UHGV virus genome: UHGV-1717814
Direction: 5' to 3' (one strand)
Source of the DNA: a virus
DNA: 10,525 nucleotides
The position numbers and the translations under genes are program-made. Under the pieces are notes generated by a model that saw nothing but the letters and a program-made list of their open reading frames with translations, did no database searches and had not been told where the DNA came from. Below are positions 46-10,525 of this stretch, in pieces. How positions within the stretch are numbered: position 1 is the stretch's first letter; each line of letters starts with the position of its first letter.

Positions 46-122
46 GTGGCATTAGCTCAGTTGGACAGAGCAACCGCCTTCTAAGCGGTTGGTCGCAGGT
101 TCGAATCCTGCATGCCACGCCA
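46..122 (+). tRNA. tRNA-Arg, anticodon UCU (reads AGA)
   Basis: 77 nt. Acceptor stem GTGGCAT (46-52) pairs with ATGCCAC (112-118), discriminator G119, CCA 120-122. D-stem GCTC/GAGC, anticodon stem ACCGC/GCGGT with 7-nt loop CTTCTAA (anticodon TCT at 80-82), T-arm GCAGG-TTCGAAT-CCTGC. Fold worked out by hand, not with a tRNA scanner. Confidence 0.85.
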
Positions 123-2965: not shown

Positions 2966-2979
2966 CGTGACATGTCACA
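2966..2979. repeat. 14-mer CGTGACATGTCACA, copy 2
   Basis: Identical to 701-714. Overlaps the stop codon of the 2975-3322 ORF and lies about 40 nt upstream (in transcription sense) of the terS-proximal terminator. Confidence 0.8.
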
Positions 2980-3322
2980 CTATTAATTTCGTTTCATGCC
3001 AGCCTTTAGTCACCCAGCATTGCGAGTCACCATTACACGGGCATGAATTAACTGGAACTCTCTCGCCGCACTTACCGCAACGTTTTCTGCTGATCGATTT
3101 TATACGCCCGCGCACACGTGCATCATCCTGGCGGATCAGCAGCGCGATGTACTCGGCCATTTCATAGGGATCGCGACCAGGGCGCCGGGCGGCGCAGTTC
3201 CGCGCCAGCATTTCCTGCTCCTGCTTATCCAGCACCAGTTCAATTTTGCGCTCACCGGCGGCGGACTGCCGAGCGCGCTGCGCGGCTTTGCGTTCTGCGG
3301 GGGATTTAGCCACGAATCGCAC
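2975..3322 (-). CDS. Hypothetical basic protein (about 112-115 aa) with C-terminal Cys cluster CGKCG...CPCNGDSQC; possible DNA-binding regulator
   Basis: Long ORF on the operon strand. Start is uncertain: GTG at 3320-3322 or GTG at 3311-3313, which has GGAG 8 nt upstream. Function is inferred only from composition and position. Confidence 0.4.
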   Translation of the reverse strand: MRFVAKSPAERKAAQRARQSAAGERKIELVLDKQEQEMLARNCAARRPGRDPYEMAEYIALLIRQDDARVRGRIKSISRKRCGKCGERVPVNSCPCNGDSQCWVTKGWHETKLIV

Positions 3323-3428
3323 TCCACGCCAGATTGATTAATGACTCCCAGGTAATATAAACCCGGATACCAGCAGCCAGGCCGAAACCAATCACCATGG
3401 CATAAAGCAGAGCGTTGCACTTGTTCAT
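3306..3428 (-). CDS. 40-aa hydrophobic peptide (MNKCNALLYAMVIGFGLAAGIRVYITWESLINLAWSAIRG), putative small membrane protein
   Basis: Below the ORF-track size cut-off. ATG overlaps the stop of the upstream gene (TGATG) and GGAGGTGA lies upstream. Overlaps the start region of the 2975-3322 ORF, so one of the two models is probably wrong. Confidence 0.35.
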   Translation of the reverse strand: MNKCNALLYAMVIGFGLAAGIRVYITWESLINLAWSAIRG

Positions 3429-4195
3429 CACTTCACCTCCTGCGGCGGTTCTGGTAGCGGCATCCAGTGGGTTACATTGCGGCTCTGCGTTTCGAAGAAC
3501 TCCTCACCATTGCGGACGACATCAAAAAATTCACCGTCTCGATATTGCGCATAAAGAACGAATGCGCTATCACATAAAATAATTACGTGCTGACCATCAT
3601 CAGGCATTCGCTCACTACAGCTTATCCAACCATCCGGAGTAACCGGATAGTTGCCATTCACAAGGTCAGCTCGAACATATAGCGTGTCATCATGGTGCTG
3701 ATTGTGGCTGCACCACGTTAATTCGCTTAACTCGCCATCTTCTGGCCATACTCCAGCCGTTTGCAGCCAGATATGGGCTGGCGCATCTTGGCAAGGTGTA
3801 TTAACTGGCAACTTGTAAGTTTGGCTTACAGGTTCGGCACCATGAAGCATGGCGGCGCGGCAGGCATTCCAGCCTGTAGCGTATGCAGCCGCTTTGCTGC
3901 TGCCTTCAACTGGCGCATCCTGCCAATACATTTCTTCCGGCACTACCTGCACCTGAGGGGTGGCGTAGAGTGGAATTCCTCCCCCTCCACCAGAAAATTC
4001 ATTGCGAGCGTTATACTCACGACCATCTGCGTCATCACGCATCCACGCCACCGGTTCTGCTTCCAGCGATGCCAGCGCGATACGAAACACATTGGCAAGC
4101 AGGCTGTCTGAAGATTGGTTATCGTGCGCCGGGTCGCTCAGGAAGCCTGTGATGAATGATTTAATCTCCGCACGTTCTTTGGTAATAGTGGTCAT
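3428..4195 (-). CDS. DUF551-like phage protein, 255 aa
   Basis: C-terminal segment WISCSERMPDDGQHVIIL...HWMPLPEPP resembles the DUF551 signature as I recall it; N-terminal part is joined by a GGGGG linker. AAGGAG 8 nt upstream of the ATG at 4193-4195. Confidence 0.7.
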   Translation of the reverse strand: MTTITKERAEIKSFITGFLSDPAHDNQSSDSLLANVFRIALASLEAEPVAWMRDDADGREYNARNEFSGGGGGIPLYATPQVQVVPEEMYWQDAPVEGSSKAAAYATGWNACRAAMLHGAEPVSQTYKLPVNTPCQDAPAHIWLQTAGVWPEDGELSELTWCSHNQHHDDTLYVRADLVNGNYPVTPDGWISCSERMPDDGQHVIILCDSAFVLYAQYRDGEFFDVVRNGEEFFETQSRNVTHWMPLPEPPQEVK

Positions 4196-4205
4196 GTGTT
4201 ACTCC

Positions 4206-4469
4206 TTAACCCGCAGTGCTTTCAACTGATGAGGGGAATAAAATCTTTTCATCAAATCCGGCATTCATATCATGGACAGCAACACACCAATCCATCGACG
4301 AACGATTATCAAGAGCCTCCATGATTTCATCCATGCGGCGCAGGTCATACAGGTAAATGCTTTTATCGCCAATGGTGTAAAAACCAATTTTTTTCGGTGA
4401 TGGGCAGCGATCAAGAACGTCCTGTAATTCGTTCAACCATGCCTGTTCTTTTTTTGTCAAAGTTGCCAT
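4206..4469 (-). CDS. Hypothetical protein, 87 aa (possibly extended to the GTG at 4544)
   Basis: ATG at 4467-4469 with TAAGGAAAA upstream; stop overlaps the DUF551-like gene's SD. The upstream extension encodes FAKSPARRK, similar to the N-terminus of the 2975-3322 ORF, so the longer form cannot be excluded. Confidence 0.55.
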   Translation of the reverse strand: MATLTKKEQAWLNELQDVLDRCPSPKKIGFYTIGDKSIYLYDLRRMDEIMEALDNRSSMDWCVAVHDMNAGFDEKILFPSSVESTAG

Positions 4470-4470
4470 A

Positions 4471-4662
4471 TCAGTTTTCCTTATTAATGCGACAGTGGTT
4501 TTTCCAGCGGTTTTGCGCCGCGCTGGGCTTTTTGCAAAAACCACAATCCATCATCCCGTAATATTTCATCAACCCCATCCGTCGGTTGCTGAGTCTCACC
4601 CACTGCCAGACGCCAGGAGCGTTTCTACGAACTAACAGAATCTTTGCTTTACGGTTTTTCAT
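4471..4662 (-). CDS. Micro-ORF, 63 aa, basic (MKNRKAK...)
   Basis: ATG at 4660-4662 overlaps the stop of the upstream micro-ORF (ATGA); its own stop is 1 nt from the next ATG. No family recognised. Confidence 0.3.
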   Translation of the reverse strand: MKNRKAKILLVRRNAPGVWQWVRLSNRRMGLMKYYGMMDCGFCKKPSAAQNRWKNHCRINKEN

Positions 4663-4835
4663 CTTACAGCGTACCCTTTCTTCCGCCTGTTCTGTGACGC
4701 AGTAGGCTTACGCTTTGCGGCAAAAGCCACCTGACCAAATGGATGGAGTACCGCTATCTTATGGTTGCTAATAACCAGCTCCACCACACGCACAGGTCGC
4801 TGTAAAAAAAGTCGTTTTGCCTTACGGTTTTTCAT
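4659..4835 (-). CDS. Micro-ORF, 58 aa, basic (MKNRKAKRLF...)
   Basis: ATGA coupling at both ends; shares a near-identical 23-nt start region with the 4471-4662 ORF. Confidence 0.25.
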   Translation of the reverse strand: MKNRKAKRLFLQRPVRVVELVISNHKIAVLHPFGQVAFAAKRKPTASQNRRKKGYAVR

Positions 4836-5008
4836 CGCTTTGCTCTCCTGCGTCTCTTTGCTGCTCGTCGTGCCGCTGCAATACCGGTATGGCGGCGCTT
4901 TGGTGCCGGGATGATGTTGTCAGCCATCAGGACATACGGCTTTGCAATTAGCGCAGAAGCCCAAAAACGAGTCGGGTACGGTAACAAGCCGATACATGCC
5001 ACACGCAT
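4832..5008 (-). CDS. Micro-ORF, 58 aa, very basic C-terminus (MRVACIGLL...RRAAKRRRRAKR)
   Basis: ATG overlaps the TAA of the Ea22-like gene (TAATG) with AGGAGG 6 nt upstream; stop overlaps the next ATG. Confidence 0.35.
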   Translation of the reverse strand: MRVACIGLLPYPTRFWASALIAKPYVLMADNIIPAPKRRHTGIAAARRAAKRRRRAKR

Positions 5009-5769
5009 TACTCACCTCCTTTGATGCGAATGCCTGCAGCGCGGATTGCAGCGATGACTTCAGAAACTTTGTATGCCATTACCGTTTGGTAATCATCGTG
5101 AAAATCTGTTCGATGAAGCATGCTGCTACGTTCCGGGAGCGATATTTCCCGAGCATCCAGTTCCTTAACGCGTTCCTCCAGTTCGTAGACCCTGCATTGT
5201 TCTCTATCATCAATCAGATATAACCCAAGACATTCGCTTTCTACCCAACCGCCAAAATCATGATCGTAACGCTCACATGAAAACTCACCGTCACCGTCCT
5301 TTGTTGGAATGGTGTAACTATCTAATGGGCCACCATATGTCGGCACATTTCCCAATGTTGGATGCTCAATCCACATGAAAAATGCACGTCCGGTTATTGG
5401 GCAAATATCTGGCCGCCATTGGTTACGAACAGCCTTGGTTTCGGATAATTCTTCAGCGTGTTGTTTTACTTCCTCAAGCTCAACTCTCAGCTTCCCTACC
5501 GTTAGCGCAATATCCTCGTTCTCCTGATCGCGGCGTTTTATGTATTGCTGGTTTCTTTCCCGTTCATCCAGAAGCGCCAAGACGGTAGCCGGATTGGCTG
5601 CGGCGATGAATTCAGCATCACGAGATTCGTTTTCACTGAACACCATAGCTATTTGCTCATGGTTTATGCCGTCAGTGGAGTAAATCTCATCGTCGAATTC
5701 AACAGCCCACTTACCTTTCGTAGCCTTCTCTGCCGCCTCACGCAGTGCCTGATAGTCAATCTTGCTCAC
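5008..5769 (-). CDS. Ead/Ea22-like protein, 253 aa
   Basis: N-terminus MSKIDYQALREAAEKATKGKW matches the recalled Ea22-like signature of lambdoid prophages. GTG start at 5767-5769 with AAGGAGG 6 nt upstream. Confidence 0.7.
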   Translation of the reverse strand: MSKIDYQALREAAEKATKGKWAVEFDDEIYSTDGINHEQIAMVFSENESRDAEFIAAANPATVLALLDERERNQQYIKRRDQENEDIALTVGKLRVELEEVKQHAEELSETKAVRNQWRPDICPITGRAFFMWIEHPTLGNVPTYGGPLDSYTIPTKDGDGEFSCERYDHDFGGWVESECLGLYLIDDREQCRVYELEERVKELDAREISLPERSSMLHRTDFHDDYQTVMAYKVSEVIAAIRAAGIRIKGGE

Positions 5770-6070
5770 TGGCAGCCTCCTTTGCCGGGATTTCTAACTT
5801 TTGAGTGGTTGTATCAAATTCAAACAACTTAACCACGTCATCAAACAGGACATAATCACCATCAGGATCTTCAGTCATATCTGCGCCACAATCCTGACCG
5901 CACGAGTCGCAACCATCCATATCAAGCTCGTATCGCTTCAGGTTTGCGATATTTGATAAATTCAGCGCCAGTACAGCCAGGTCATAAACCTCTTCGGCAG
6001 TGACATCGCTGTTCAGTCCCATTTCATGGCGATATATGATTTTTTCTACACGTTGTTTTGTGATCGTCAT
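5756..6070 (-). CDS. Hypothetical strongly acidic protein, 104 aa (24 D/E against 9 K/R by my count; Cys cluster DGCDSCGQDCGAD)
   Basis: ATG at 6068-6070 overlaps the upstream stop (ATGA). Composition counted by hand. Confidence 0.6.
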   Translation of the reverse strand: MTITKQRVEKIIYRHEMGLNSDVTAEEVYDLAVLALNLSNIANLKRYELDMDGCDSCGQDCGADMTEDPDGDYVLFDDVVKLFEFDTTTQKLEIPAKEAASEQD

Positions 6071-6630
6071 TTTTGCTCACCTTCCTGTTCTTCCAGAAAA
6101 ATACGCATAGCCTCAAGCATCTCTTCGGTGTCATACGGAGACAGCTTGTCACGCAGGATGTGTTCAATGCTGTTAATGAACTTGCGGATTGCTTTGCGTT
6201 CAATTTCAGCCAGGAAAGCGTCGGTGGCTGGGGTGTCTGATTGCAGAGACTTTGCGCGATAGTCATTCCACCCTCTTGCATACATGGGATTAACTTGCAC
6301 TCCATCTTTTACGCAATATGCCTGCCCTCCACGGTTGATAACCTTGATTTCGTCCATAGCGCCAGACTTCAGCCCCGCATTCTCCGCCGCCAGTGCCGAA
6401 AACTTCTCGTGTGCCAACTTAACAGCCGAATCAGCCTGCTTAATTGACTCAATCGCTTTCTGCTGGTCTTCGGCCAGCGCATTAGCACGCACCAGTTGCA
6501 CTTCCAGTTGCGTTGCCAAATCGCTGATCAGCTTTGCCACACTGCGCATATCAACGGCACCACATTCTGCTTTCAGTTCCGAAGCCATCTCATGCCCGGC
6601 GGCAACTAACCCTTTGATATTACTTTCCAT
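6067..6630 (-). CDS. Hypothetical protein with alanine-rich, probably coiled-coil N-terminal half, 187 aa
   Basis: ATG at 6628-6630 with GAGGGTAAAG upstream; no family recognised. Confidence 0.6.
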   Translation of the reverse strand: MESNIKGLVAAGHEMASELKAECGAVDMRSVAKLISDLATQLEVQLVRANALAEDQQKAIESIKQADSAVKLAHEKFSALAAENAGLKSGAMDEIKVINRGGQAYCVKDGVQVNPMYARGWNDYRAKSLQSDTPATDAFLAEIERKAIRKFINSIEHILRDKLSPYDTEEMLEAMRIFLEEQEGEQK

Positions 6631-6691
6631 CTTTACCCTCGCTTATCCACATAACTTATTGATTACATTGATAACTAAAAAGATCGTCGAT

Positions 6692-7036
6692 TCAGAAATC
6701 TTCGATGTTCCAGCCACCACCTGCTTTCTTTGGTTTAACCGTTACCCCGATGATTCGGAACGGATACTGATCTGCGGCGACTTTGGTTTTCACCCTGGCG
6801 TCGTCGGTCCAGAAACCTTTCACTTCGTGCAGTTCCATCTCGCCGGTGGCGAGCATCACAGCGAAATCTGGCGTATAGAACGTGTTATTAGCTAACCGCA
6901 GCTTGATACCCTCGAATCGATACCAGGCGATTTCCCCTGCACGTTTACGCTGCTCAAGGTGCTGGCAATACGCAGATTCTGTTTTGTTCATCTGGCCTGT
7001 TTTGAGTCGACCAAGAGCCTGCATCTGTTTTCTCAT
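6692..7036 (-). CDS. Small PD-(D/E)xK-like nuclease-fold protein, 114 aa (DUF1064-like)
   Basis: Segment YTPDFAVMLATGEMELHEVKG contains a PD...(E)xK arrangement. ATG at 7034-7036 with GAGGT 5 nt upstream. Family assignment from memory. Confidence 0.6.
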   Translation of the reverse strand: MRKQMQALGRLKTGQMNKTESAYCQHLEQRKRAGEIAWYRFEGIKLRLANNTFYTPDFAVMLATGEMELHEVKGFWTDDARVKTKVAADQYPFRIIGVTVKPKKAGGGWNIEDF

Positions 7037-7039
7037 GAT

Positions 7040-7116
7040 TTACCTCTGAGGTAATTAAAAACCACATAAGACACGAAATCAATAGGGTTTAGAATATTTT
7101 ATTACCTGATGGGTAA
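7040..7116 (-). promoter_or_regulatory. Operator-flanked promoter driving the accessory operon (minus strand)
   Basis: Perfect TTACC-N5-GGTAA at 7040-7054 and 7102-7116. Between them, on the minus strand: -35 TTGATT (7077-7082), 17-nt spacer, -10 TTTAAT (7054-7059). Same geometry as the PL-like region, including a 19-nt gap between the upstream operator and the -35. Confidence 0.5.
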
Positions 7117-7153
7117 TTATTTGAGCGTAAAAAAATGCGCTATCGCGCTGGTA

Positions 7154-7939: not shown

Positions 7940-8751
7940 AAGAAATCCTCCCACGCTTCAGGGCTGTTCCAGTGCGGAACGTTGTTATCAGGTAATGTTG
8001 ATTGCTTCTGTCTGCTAATCTGCAGCCGCCTTGCCAGCTTCTGCTCCCACTGTGCCTGATGGTATGCCTTACCCTCAGCCATCCAGTAAATTCTGAACTC
8101 TGCAAGTTCCTGTGCCGTTGGCAGACTGTCCAGGTAGATCCCCTGCAATGAGCTTTTCCGAAGAAAGTCATCTGATGGCTGCCATTGTTCATGCATGACA
8201 AATTTGCCTAATTGCCCTGGCCCACCAGGAGGAACAAAGTTATTCATCACGGCGTTGTTTGCGCCTGGGTCATGATGCACAGAATCCCCGTTTTTTGTCC
8301 TGCTCTCCCTCTCTTGGTTAAATGACTGGTTATATGACTGGTTCTGGATCCCGTTTTTGGGATCATTCAACATCCCGTTTTTGGGATCATTCAACATCCC
8401 GTTTTTGGGTATATTCCCGTTTTCGGTAACATTACCGTTTTCGGGTTCATTGCCCCCCTCTCGGTTGCCTTTAATGTTCCCGTTTTTGGTTATATTAAGA
8501 GAGAAAACCCGCACTCTTTTTGTCGCTCCCTTTCTCTCCCCGGTATCTGAAATAAGCCCCATTTTCATGAGCGATATAAGTCCGGCCTGCACGGTTTTTT
8601 TATTCAGGCAAGTGTCTTTAACGAGGCGTTCTATGCTGGGGTAGCAGAGGTTATATTCATCGGCTCTGTCAGCCATCGAGAGCAGTATGAGCTTTAATGA
8701 CGAGCTACCTGGATCTGTCTCCCAGGCCCAATCTGTTGCATGTCTGCTCAT
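7936..8751 (-). CDS. Replication initiator, O-like, 271 aa, with an internal low-complexity N/G/K-rich region encoded by the origin iterons
   Basis: Sits immediately upstream of, and coupled to, the P-like gene. Contains the iteron array at 8284-8497. ATG at 8749-8751 with GGAG 9 nt upstream. Confidence 0.75.
   Translation of the reverse strand: MSRHATDWAWETDPGSSSLKLILLSMADRADEYNLCYPSIERLVKDTCLNKKTVQAGLISLMKMGLISDTGERKGATKRVRVFSLNITKNGNIKGNREGGNEPENGNVTENGNIPKNGMLNDPKNGMLNDPKNGIQNQSYNQSFNQERESRTKNGDSVHHDPGANNAVMNNFVPPGGPGQLGKFVMHEQWQPSDDFLRKSSLQGIYLDSLPTAQELAEFRIYWMAEGKAYHQAQWEQKLARRLQISRQKQSTLPDNNVPHWNSPEAWEDFL
8284..8497. repeat. Iteron array, putative replication origin inside the O-like gene
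   Basis: Two perfect 24-bp direct repeats ATCCCGTTTTTGGGATCATTCAAC (8348-8371, 8372-8395) plus at least four degenerate copies sharing CCCGTTTT(T)GG (around 8284, 8396, 8417, 8435, 8478). Confidence 0.7.
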
Positions 8752-9117: not shown

Positions 9118-9348
9118 TCATGAGTAGAAGAAGTATGCCAGTTCTGCTTTTGAGCACAGCCATTGTCTTGATTTACAGGCTTTAAAAAGCCCATCCATCA
9201 ATACCTTACCTGGCATTTTGCGCTTACCTGTTAAGTGAGTCTGGATATAGTGACTCGTCGTTCCGGCTTCCTGTGCGAAGGCTTCACGCTCATCCGGAGT
9301 AAGTGCAAGCCAGTGCTTTTTGAAATCGAAATGTCCGTTATCGCTCAT
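9118..9348 (-). CDS. Cro-like HTH regulator, 76 aa (YdaS-like)
   Basis: Divergent from the repressor gene across an operator-rich gap. Segment FAQEAGTTSHYIQTHLTGKRKMP resembles the YdaS/Cro-type HTH as I recall it. Confidence 0.65.
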   Translation of the reverse strand: MSDNGHFDFKKHWLALTPDEREAFAQEAGTTSHYIQTHLTGKRKMPGKVLMDGLFKACKSRQWLCSKAELAYFFYS

Positions 9349-9384: not shown

Positions 9385-9447
9385 TCACCTATAAGGTAAC
9401 AAAAATCAAGGATAGTTACCCATGAGGTGCATTTACCTGTTGGGTAA
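9385..9447. promoter_or_regulatory. Tripartite OR-like operator region with divergent promoters
   Basis: TCACC-tataa-GGTAA (9385-9399), TTACC-catga-GGTGC (9416-9430), perfect TTACC-tgttg-GGTAA (9433-9447). Candidate minus-strand promoter for the Cro-like gene: TTGATT, 17 nt, GAATAT, overlapping the first two sites. Confidence 0.6.
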
Positions 9448-9502: not shown

Positions 9503-10087
9503 ATGAAAAGTATCCAGGACGTCCGCAGGCAAAATCTCAACGACTTGATCGACCGTGAATTCAATGGTGTTCAGACGCGGATGGCTGAAAAACTTGGAAC
9601 TCAGGCAAATCTGGTAAACCGCTGGGCTCTTGGCAAGAAGGTTATCGGCGACCAGGTTGCGCGAAAAATTGAAGCTGCCGCCAATAAACCCCGTAACTGG
9701 CTTGATATCGATCGCTCGCTTTCTCAGGAAGGTTTTCAGCCTGTCGGCCCGAGTGATATAGGTCAGCTGGCTGCTCACAACCTGGAACGCTGGATGAGCG
9801 AAAGCCGCGACCTTTCAACGCAGGGAAAACTACACCGCGCATCCGGCGTCGCCCAGGTGACAATCAGCCGCCTGTTAAACAATGAGGTCAGCGTTTCCAT
9901 TTCCACCCTGGAGAATGTTGCATCCGCATTCGGGCGTCATGGCTATGAATTACTGATTCACCCGCACGACCCTGCGACTATCAACTATGACCGCTCGCGC
10001 TACGCATTGTTACCCGAAACCGAGAAAGCAAAGATCGAAAGTTACATTGAATTTGTCATCAACCAGAACGAAAAAAACAAACAATAA
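9503..10087 (+). CDS. Immunity repressor candidate, 194 aa, with two XRE-type HTH segments and no recognisable S24 autocleavage domain
   Basis: HTH-like segments QTRMAEKLGTQANLVNRWALGKK and GKLHRASGVAQVTISRLLNNEVSVSISTLENVASAF. Divergent from the Cro-like gene and followed by a terminator. Absence of the peptidase domain judged by eye and by the short length. Confidence 0.7.
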   Translation: MKSIQDVRRQNLNDLIDREFNGVQTRMAEKLGTQANLVNRWALGKKVIGDQVARKIEAAANKPRNWLDIDRSLSQEGFQPVGPSDIGQLAAHNLERWMSESRDLSTQGKLHRASGVAQVTISRLLNNEVSVSISTLENVASAFGRHGYELLIHPHDPATINYDRSRYALLPETEKAKIESYIEFVINQNEKNKQ

Positions 10088-10107: not shown

Positions 10108-10133
10108 AAGCCGCCTTATGGCGGCTTTTTTAT
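10108..10133 (+). terminator. Rho-independent terminator after the repressor gene
   Basis: AAGCCGCC (10108-10115), loop TTAT, GGCGGCTT (10120-10127), then T-run to 10133. Confidence 0.6.
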
Positions 10134-10144
10134 TGCCTATTCGA

Positions 10145-10221
10145 TTACCTAACGGGTAATTTTTTTAACTCATATCTATTGACATCAAACCATATACGCA
10201 TAATTATTACCTCAACGGTAA
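10145..10221 (+). promoter_or_regulatory. PL-like promoter flanked by two operators
   Basis: Perfect TTACC-taacg-GGTAA (10145-10159) and TTACC-tcaac-GGTAA (10207-10221). Between them: -35 TTGACA (10179-10184), 17-nt spacer, -10 AATTAT (10202-10207). Confidence 0.55.
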
Positions 10222-10494: not shown

Positions 10495-10525
10495 CTGTCT
10501 CTTATACACATCTCCGAGCCCACGA
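10495..10525. other. Illumina Nextera / Tn5 mosaic-end adapter sequence (technical artefact)
   Basis: CTGTCTCTTATACACATCTCCGAGCCCACGA is an exact 31-nt match to the Nextera read-through adapter (19-bp mosaic end plus CCGAGCCCACGA), recalled from memory. Confidence 0.9.

Follow-up and report, generated by a model that had tools for sequence, protein, structure and literature searches.

In the viral sequence UHGV-1717814 (10,525 nucleotides (nt); the window, i.e. the whole stretch of DNA analysed), we describe an operator-flanked, promoter-like element, termed P3, that lies between a λ-P-like replication gene and a 4-kb block of closely packed genes. Judged by its sequence, the window represents the early region of a Uetakevirus, i.e. 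a phiV10/ε15-type temperate podovirus of Escherichia coli: the 901 bases around P3 share 99.6% identity with Escherichia phage phiv142-3, and 96-98% identity with phiV10, ZX5, TL-2011b and the O157 typing phages 9 and 10. We propose that positions 7040-7148 constitute a self-contained cassette of a weak terminator, a sigma-70-type promoter and two bracketing operators, which would be controlled by the phage repressor Rep and head the block from 7036 down to 2975, and we put the probability of this reading at roughly 70%. P3 itself would then probably act as a delayed-early promoter under Rep control.

Anatomy of the P3 cassette and its operators

The cassette is composed of the following elements:

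7148-7129, minus strand: hairpin GCGC-GATA-GCGC (7148-7137) followed by seven T residues (T7; 7135-7129), 6 nt past the stop codon of the P-like gene
7116-7102: distal operator TTACCCATCAGGTAA, i.e. TTACC-CATCA-GGTAA, a perfect 15-mer centred at about -62 from the predicted start
7101-7083, minus strand: 19-nt A/T-rich gap TAAAATATTCTAAACCCTA, of which the AAAAT(A/G)T part is kept across the clusters of P3 cores described below
7082-7054, minus strand: promoter core P3, with -35 TTGATT (7082-7077), a 17-nt spacer (7076-7060) and -10 TTTAAT (7059-7054)
7054-7040: proximal operator TTACCTCAGAGGTAA, i.e. TTACC-TCAGA-GGTAA, a perfect 15-mer matching 16 of 17 positions of the 17-mer and having one T in common with the -10 hexamer

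Direct indexing reproduced, base for base, the minus-strand order put forward in the initial annotation of this DNA (operator, 19-nt gap, -35, 17 nt, -10, operator, ATG). Transcription is predicted to start near 7047, and the proximal operator is centred on this +1 position. The distal operator is also a perfect 17-mer (ATTACCCATCAGGTAAT, 7101-7117), and the gap next to it is possibly UP-element-like. The annotation had further placed a Shine-Dalgarno sequence and an ATG behind the proximal operator; both are present, but the Shine-Dalgarno GAGG of the next gene (7046-7043) lies inside the operator and is followed by ATC and the ATG at 7036. The cassette thereby occupies the only sizeable intergenic gap 3' of the P-like gene.

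Six perfect copies of the palindrome underlying both operators, TTACC-N5-GGTAA, were counted in the window against 0.01 expected, a number that none of 200 shuffled sequences reached, and with up to two mismatches allowed there were 14 copies against 2.9 expected. Shuffling and expected counts thus rule out a chance origin of the palindromes. The sites fall into groups (10145 and 10207; three at 9385-9447; 9048; 7040 and 7102; 2856 and 2874), and those outside P3 comprise, together with their promoters (matrix ranks refer to the scoring explained below):

10145-10221, plus strand: PL-like cassette, with operator 10145-10159, 19 nt, TTGACA, 17 nt, AATTAT and operator 10207-10221; matrix rank 1
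9385-9447: OR-like region between rep and cro, with operators 9433-9447 (perfect), 9416-9430 (two mismatches) and 9385-9399 (one mismatch)
9402-9374: PR-like promoter TTGTTA-17-TATTAT; matrix rank 2
9062-9002, minus strand: promoter P2, with a one-mismatch operator (9062-9048), 17 nt, TTGATC (9030-9025), 17 nt and CAAAAT (9007-9002); matrix rank 3
2856-2888: tandem operators before the small-terminase gene (terS), 2874-2888 perfect and 2856-2870 with one mismatch

The clustering of sites in the rep-cro intergenic region and at PL is the placement expected of operators, and in four fully annotated relatives, perfect copies were intergenic in 36 of 38 cases. P2 sits behind the strong terminator of cro (9096-9077) and heads the gp40, O-like and P-like genes, an arrangement also found in ε15 (stretch L003, 6735-6790).

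P3 and the PL-like region share their geometry. Both operator pairs (10145/10207 and 7040/7102) are spaced 62 base pairs (bp) centre to centre, and in both the first operator is followed by a 19-nt gap, TTGAnn, a 17-nt spacer and an A/T-rich hexamer that overlaps the second palindrome by one base, its final T being the first of the palindrome. The notion of PL as a twin of P3 was therefore borne out as far as layout and gap length are concerned, yet PL is on the plus strand and divergent from the cro side. Likewise, P3 had been counted as the third promoter of its kind, a count that leaves out both P2 (around 9030), with its one upstream operator, and the tandem operators before terS.

The same operator motif also turned up in an apparently unrelated immunity region. 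In a low-G+C phage (L012, IMGVR_UViG_2716884256_000003), four TTACC-N5-GGTAA copies at 3780-3900 surround TTGACA/TATAGT and sit between the divergent genes for a 134-amino-acid (aa) XRE-type repressor and a 77-aa Cro-like protein; L078 and L127 are similar.

Conservation and promoter quality of P3

Six relatives were chosen without use of the palindrome, i.e. by DNA similarity or Rep homology: phiV10, ε15, SPC32H, the Enterobacter phages Tyrion and BUCT554, and the Klebsiella phage BUCT711. All six share with the window the order hairpin-T7, 8-9 variable nt, operator, 19 nt, TTGAnn, 17-18 nt, A/T-rich hexamer, operator, 3-5 nt and ATG (in SPC32H at KC911856, 35972-36048). The 62-bp spacing holds at PL and P3 in all seven operator-independent records, with 63 bp at the PL of BUCT711 as the sole exception, and the proximal operator keeps (A/G)GG, i.e. 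the Shine-Dalgarno, in its spacer in all lineages. The surroundings are less stable. Upstream, the P-like gene is missing in ε15, SPC32H and BUCT711, and in ε15 and BUCT711 an additional gene separates the small gp40-type gene from the replication gene; downstream, some lineages have a DUF1064 gene, and ε15 and Tyrion a RuvC-type resolvase gene. Constant while its flanking genes vary, the cassette thus behaves as a separate unit.

In IMG/VR, a search for pairs of perfect palindromes spaced 62 bp apart recovered at least 120 stretches (L009-L128) with 97 distinct P3-type and 74 distinct PL-type regions; given that this pattern imposes half-sites and spacing, the loci were used for the interior only and are no proof that half-sites or spacing are conserved. 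The 69 distinct P3 cores grouped into nine clusters, with less than 85% identity between their interiors. Across all nine, TATTGA is invariant in the same position and an A/T-rich -10 stands in fixed register, and in each the best forward-strand promoter uses TATTGA and outscores the reverse strand. Besides, nucleotide diversity (π) among 45 phiV10-type sequences is 0.02 over the 29 nt from -35 to -10, compared to 0.056 at 442 four-fold degenerate sites of neighbouring genes, which argues for constraint on the whole interval.

These patterns bear on the possibility that there is no promoter at all and that the palindromes are auxiliary Rep sites, serving to raise the local repressor concentration, to loop to OR/PL (like λ OL-OR or the flanking sites of phage 186) or to act as a roadblock, with an incidental -35/-10 pair in between. 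Such a view could draw on the unexceptional score of P3, on the occurrence of single operators at other intergenic positions, and on the capacity of a Rep tetramer to bridge sites (PMC9638917, PMC9986798). However, it leaves unaccounted for a TTGA that is equidistant from both operators in nine clusters of such divergent interiors, a -10-to-operator register that P3 shares with PL and the terS site, and an interior more constrained than synonymous sites. We therefore deem it very unlikely.

An antisense promoter on the plus strand (AAGACA-16-TAGAAT, 7068-7095) would read back into the P-like gene. It was listed by a consensus scan and has a good -10 (matrix rank 40), yet only part of the phiV10-type group has it, it already reads AAGAAT in phiV10 itself, and the best reverse-strand match of the other clusters is weaker and lies elsewhere. 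Moreover, neither an open reading frame (ORF) nor a structured RNA lies downstream, and there is no Rfam match. This candidate was rejected for its lack of conservation and appears next to negligible to us. For P3, too, a search for structured RNA gave no Rfam match (a tRNA-Arg at 46-119 being the only match in the window), and the fold of 7036-7120 had a z-score of -1.7.

Apart from the limit set by the IMG/VR search pattern, several observations weigh against our interpretation of the cassette. Promoters were scored with a rough sigma-70 weight matrix, built on approximate values of the classical hexamer frequencies, and P3 ranked 12th among the ~105,000 candidates in the window; its score of 9.3 is equalled by about ten sites within coding sequence. 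TTGATT matches the consensus in 4/6 positions and TTTAAT in 5/6, at a spacer of 17 nt, but with a T at -11: whether read as TTTAAT or, with an 18-nt spacer, as TTAATT, the -10 lacks the near-universal A at this position. Accordingly, the consensus promoter scan of the window, for which TTTAAT has no A at hexamer position 2, did not call P3, and taken alone its -35/-10 pair could have arisen by chance. The upstream hairpin has a 4-pair stem without covariation, and read-through from PR and P2 may supply much of the block's expression. That a single Rep tetramer may close a 62-bp loop (see below) is a matter of geometry combined with the published description of Rep. Finally, the accessible literature, the key ε15 and SPC32H Rep papers excepted, contained no transcript-start, reporter, footprint or chromatin immunoprecipitation data for the P3 site. 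In the same literature, the degenerate operator string had no match, ATTACC/GGTAAT together with 'repressor' gave irrelevant primer matches only, and the ZX5 paper, in its accessible portions, predicts four promoters without coordinates and contains nothing on the P3 site (PMC9782041).

Several of these points fit an alternative in which P3 is real but minor, the block being fed mainly by PR/P2 read-through over a leaky hairpin, and P3 topping up this supply or needing a phage activator. The weak 4-bp hairpin, the -10 without A at -11 and the rank of 12 are in its favour, and both a conserved T(G/A)TGG in the spacer and a palindrome (ATGCGCAT) found upstream in most other lineages might bind an activator. 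On the other hand, hairpin and T7 are kept in all lineages beside unrelated upstream genes. Five of the nine clusters moreover have a good -10 (TAAATT or TATATT, 18 nt from the -35 and with A at -11) and reach scores of 11-13.7, the level of PL and PR in the window, which suggests that the P3 family has a respectable promoter of which the phiV10 group carries a weaker version. Nor would two operators be needed on a unit fed solely from promoters that are already repressed: with PR off in the lysogen, their placement around the -35/-10 pair is sensible only if a local target needs repression. We thus consider a minor P3 improbable, albeit partly overlapping with the repressor-controlled promoter that we favour.

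The ATGCGCAT element, an 8-bp palindrome between distal operator and -35 (ε15 stretch L003, 8929-8936), occurs in the ε15, SPC32H, BUCT711 and BUCT554 types. Its position is taken by GTGCGCAT in the L033 type and by ATTCTAAA in the window's group, and Tyrion lacks it as well. Another factor might bind this palindrome.

A separate observation concerns the distal operators of P3 and PL, in which the central 5 bp (7107-7111, 10150-10154) and the outer flank (7117-7126, 10135-10144) are hypervariable, as are positions 7045-7049. Among 45-46 phiV10-type sequences, π in the hypervariable distal-operator columns is 0.28-0.45, i.e. 5-8 times that of four-fold sites (0.056); in the remaining intergenic DNA it is 0.023, below synonymous sites, and the operators of the rep-cro region display no such hypervariability. 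The transition-to-transversion ratio of these columns is the same as at four-fold sites and offers no clue.

Repressor, terminator and downstream genes

The genes and terminators around the cassette are as follows:

10241 onward, plus strand: 50-aa ORF heading the operon termed leftward, into which the PL-like promoter reads
10108-10127, plus strand: terminator
9503-10087, plus strand: repressor Rep, a 194-aa protein with two helix-turn-helix (HTH) motifs
9118-9348, minus strand: Cro-like small HTH protein, 76 aa (phrog_35 'transcriptional repressor', E 7e-13)
9096-9077, minus strand: strong terminator 3' of cro
8967-8767, minus strand: small zinc-finger-like gene (gp40-type)
8751-7936, minus strand: DnaT/O-like initiator gene
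7954-7154, minus strand: λ-P-like gene
6692-7036, minus strand: DUF1064/Holliday-junction-resolvase-type nuclease, 114 aa (PF06356, E 3e-7; phrog_190, E 1e-42)
2975-7036, minus strand: putative delayed-early operon of eleven packed or overlapping ORFs (DUF1064, Eae-like, Ead/Ea22-like, DUF551 and others)
2975-3313, minus strand: last gene of this block, a 112-aa predicted transcriptional regulator (phrog_536 'transcriptional regulator')
after 2927-2909 (terminator), minus strand: terminase genes

The 194-aa protein matches SPC32H Rep (PDB 5D50) over its full length (residues 1-190, E 4e-42), has no peptidase domain and is 100% identical to ORF21 of phage ZX5. Overexpression of the ZX5 repressor is reported to have eliminated free phage and to have reduced the transcripts of endolysin and holin by over 99.9% (PMC9782041). 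SPC32H Rep comprises three domains, of which the N-terminal one (HTH) binds DNA, the HTH-like middle one serves dimerisation and the C-terminal one tetramerisation (PMC9986798); it binds palindromic DNA as a tetramer and is not cleaved but disassembled by a tetrameric antirepressor, and its repression mechanism 'has not been extensively characterized' (PMC9638917, PMC9986798). From this homology, Rep is predicted to bind 7040-7054 and 7102-7116.

The Rep of ε15 is 42% identical to that of the window, and across lineages with 42-45% overall Rep identity the NLVNRW stretch in the first HTH is invariant. The Cro-like protein, which is 78-83% identical across most lineages and 59% identical to that of the Klebsiella phage BUCT711, has an invariant AGTTSHYIQ and is the second candidate ligand of the operators. 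The invariant NLVNRW and the conserved Cro-like protein fit the invariant operator half-site. This half-site is identical in the Uetakeviruses of E. coli, Salmonella, Enterobacter and Klebsiella (L003-L007) despite a Rep identity of 42-45%; immunity specificity may thus not reside in operator recognition, and the dozen operators per genome perhaps freeze half-site recognition.

In the mechanism that we envisage, the weak terminator would end the replication-gene transcript before P3. In the lysogen, Rep on the proximal operator would cover the start site and the end of the -10, blocking open-complex formation; the distal operator at -62 would add cooperativity, and the A/T-rich stretch adjoining it could serve as an UP element. 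Since 62 bp correspond to ~5.9 helical turns, the two dyads face the same way, and one Rep tetramer with its two DNA-binding units might hold both operators and enclose the promoter in a 62-bp micro-loop, as at PL. The Cro-like protein would bind the operators later in infection. Once an SOS-controlled antirepressor, whose gene lies outside the window and is annotated elsewhere in the genomes of the close relatives phiv142-3 and ZX5, inactivates Rep, P3 would fire together with PL, PR and P2 and transcribe the block from 7036 to 2975, with its junction-resolving nuclease, nin-like small genes and predicted regulator.

The upstream hairpin, with four G-C pairs, a tetraloop and a perfect T7, is predicted to fold at -8.4 kcal/mol (z-score -2.1), part of which comes from an outer helix that would use up the U-run; the other three terminators of the window reach -15, -16 and -21 kcal/mol, with z-scores of -4.4 to -6.0. 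A terminator scan requiring a stem of at least 5 bp did not detect the hairpin at 7129-7148. Yet it is annotated as a putative rho-independent terminator in the phiV10 record (NC_007804), and GCGC-N4-GCGC-(A/G)-T7 is kept in all lineages, with a stem that never varies, so that covariation is not assessable. We therefore regard it as a partial terminator.

Within the downstream block, ORFs overlap or lie no more than 61 nt apart. Between 2888 and 7040, there is no operator-like site (up to two mismatches), and the terminator scan showed no strong terminator-like site there; the next strong terminator 3' of the block is that at 2927-2909. It is plausible that the block is separately repressed, its own promoter and read-through not being mutually exclusive. 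The term accessory operon, applied to it in the initial annotation, is too narrow: the first gene is of a nuclease type, and the last encodes a predicted regulator and adjoins the late-gene control region. For this regulator, there was no sequence match in Pfam, NCBIfam or PDB, phrog_536 being the only one, and by its position it is probably the late regulator. The block would be the counterpart of the λ nin-Q segment, but with a promoter of its own.

The adjoining control region (2853-2986) opens at the 3' end of the regulator gene, where a palindrome (GTGACATGTCAC) is embedded in a promoter-like TTAATA-17-TAGATT; next come the strong terminator (2927-2909), TACTAT, the tandem operators and the ATG of terS at 2853, which has no separate Shine-Dalgarno. 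The -10-like TACTAT directly adjoins the first terS operator, in the register also observed at PL and P3, and the ε15 counterpart of the terS operator (12-27) is annotated as a repressor site. Conserved in phiv142-3, ε15, SPC32H and Tyrion, the region is reminiscent of a late switch, either of the Q/PR'/tR' type or activator-dependent, that is backed by a repressor lock.

Some further features of the window should be mentioned. A tRNA-Arg gene (anticodon TCT, 46-122, plus strand) lies 3' of the large-terminase gene and is also annotated beyond that gene in phiv142-3 (anticodon tct) and SPC32H. The DnaT/O-like initiator gene contains, at 8348-8500, six copies of an 18-24-bp repeat (ATCCCGTTTTTGGGATCATTCAAC and variants) resembling origin iterons (cf. 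λ O), with two more short repeat pairs on either side (8292-8338, 8517-8538). The terminal 31 bases (10495-10525) are CTGTCTCTTATACACATCTCCGAGCCCACGA, which we take to be the Nextera transposase adapter/mosaic end; the contig end would thus be a library artefact of non-phage origin, and the plus-strand ORF from ~10410 would be truncated by the adapter.

Relation to known systems and implications

As a probable operator-controlled early promoter of a temperate phage, P3 is an ordinary element of a known type. Its distal operator has been on record since the description of the ε15 genome (NC_004775), in which seven perfect 17-mers (ATTACC-N5-GGTAAT) are annotated as 'protein_bind: repressor': three at PL, and one each before terS, before the head genes, between ant and tailspike, and at 35906-35922, between a replication gene and the resolvase gene. 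The latter is the orthologue of 7102-7116, with the same 17-bp palindrome at the same genome position, although its flanks in ε15 lack a P-like gene and include a RuvC-type instead of a DUF1064 nuclease. The ε15 record marks perfect 17-mers only, and neither the proximal operator, the -35/-10 pair, the OR sites nor any promoter feature; proximal operator, promoter and PL-identical geometry were found in no accessible annotation or text. Another close system is the Rep-Ant switch of SPC32H/SPN1S (PDB 5D50/5D4Z), with a repressor homologous over its full length and likewise devoid of a peptidase domain, the same operator motif and the same P3 cassette.

The window resembles λ in its divergent early promoters around the repressor gene (PL/OL and PR/OR), in palindromic operators that overlap promoters, in a Cro-like second ligand, and in the succession of O/P-type replication genes, a nin-like block and a late regulator. 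λ, for its part, has no repressor-controlled promoter between P and Q, and its terminators tR2-tR4 are read through by N antitermination. Here, cro, the gp40-O-P genes and the nin-like block each have a terminator-like element and an operator-bearing candidate promoter of their own, the operators of P3 stand at -62 and +1 rather than in a tandem array, and the repressor is not RecA-cleavable. Whereas a λ-type nin segment has no internal repressor-controlled promoter, an operator-flanked cassette heads the block in the window, in which no search for N or nut was made.

Dual operators that flank a promoter and are closed by a tetrameric repressor are known from lac (O1-O3), gal (OE-OI) and deo. 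The likeness lies in two operators on the same helical face around the RNA polymerase site and in a tetramer with two DNA-binding units; the loop at P3 would, however, measure only 62 bp, as deduced from geometry, and the repressor families are unrelated. Similarly, a single prophage repressor acts at many sites beyond the immunity region in mycobacteriophage L5 (gp71 'stoperators'), TP901-1 (OR/OL/OD) and 186 (FL/FR). In contrast to the L5 sites, which are asymmetric, orientation-dependent and located inside transcription units, those of the window are symmetric and located at unit starts.

A more far-reaching, tentative and on balance doubtful idea is that a 'distributed lock' replaces λ-style antitermination in Uetakeviruses. 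The same palindrome would then start every transcription unit, namely PL, PR, P2, P3, terS, the head genes and the ant/tailspike region (possibly also lysis and int, where the sites carry one mismatch), and the 77-bp cassette at PL and P3 would be clamped by one Rep tetramer. The dozen operators would freeze the half-site and the Cro-like protein while Rep drifts to 42% identity, and the hypervariable distal spacers and flanks would hint at an unrecognised local process, mutational or selective, that acts on DNA occupied by the repressor.

An active P3 would leave current concepts of phage regulation unchanged. For phiV10/ε15-type phages, which occur frequently in E. coli O157, avian pathogenic E. 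coli and Salmonella and serve in phage typing and as reporter phages, it would place the probable late regulator gene and nin-like functions under direct repressor control, so that prophage silence would not depend on PR alone, and antirepressor induction would open four early units at once. Besides, the operator-promoter-operator cassette with its built-in ribosome-binding site would be a tidy natural part for tightly repressed expression.

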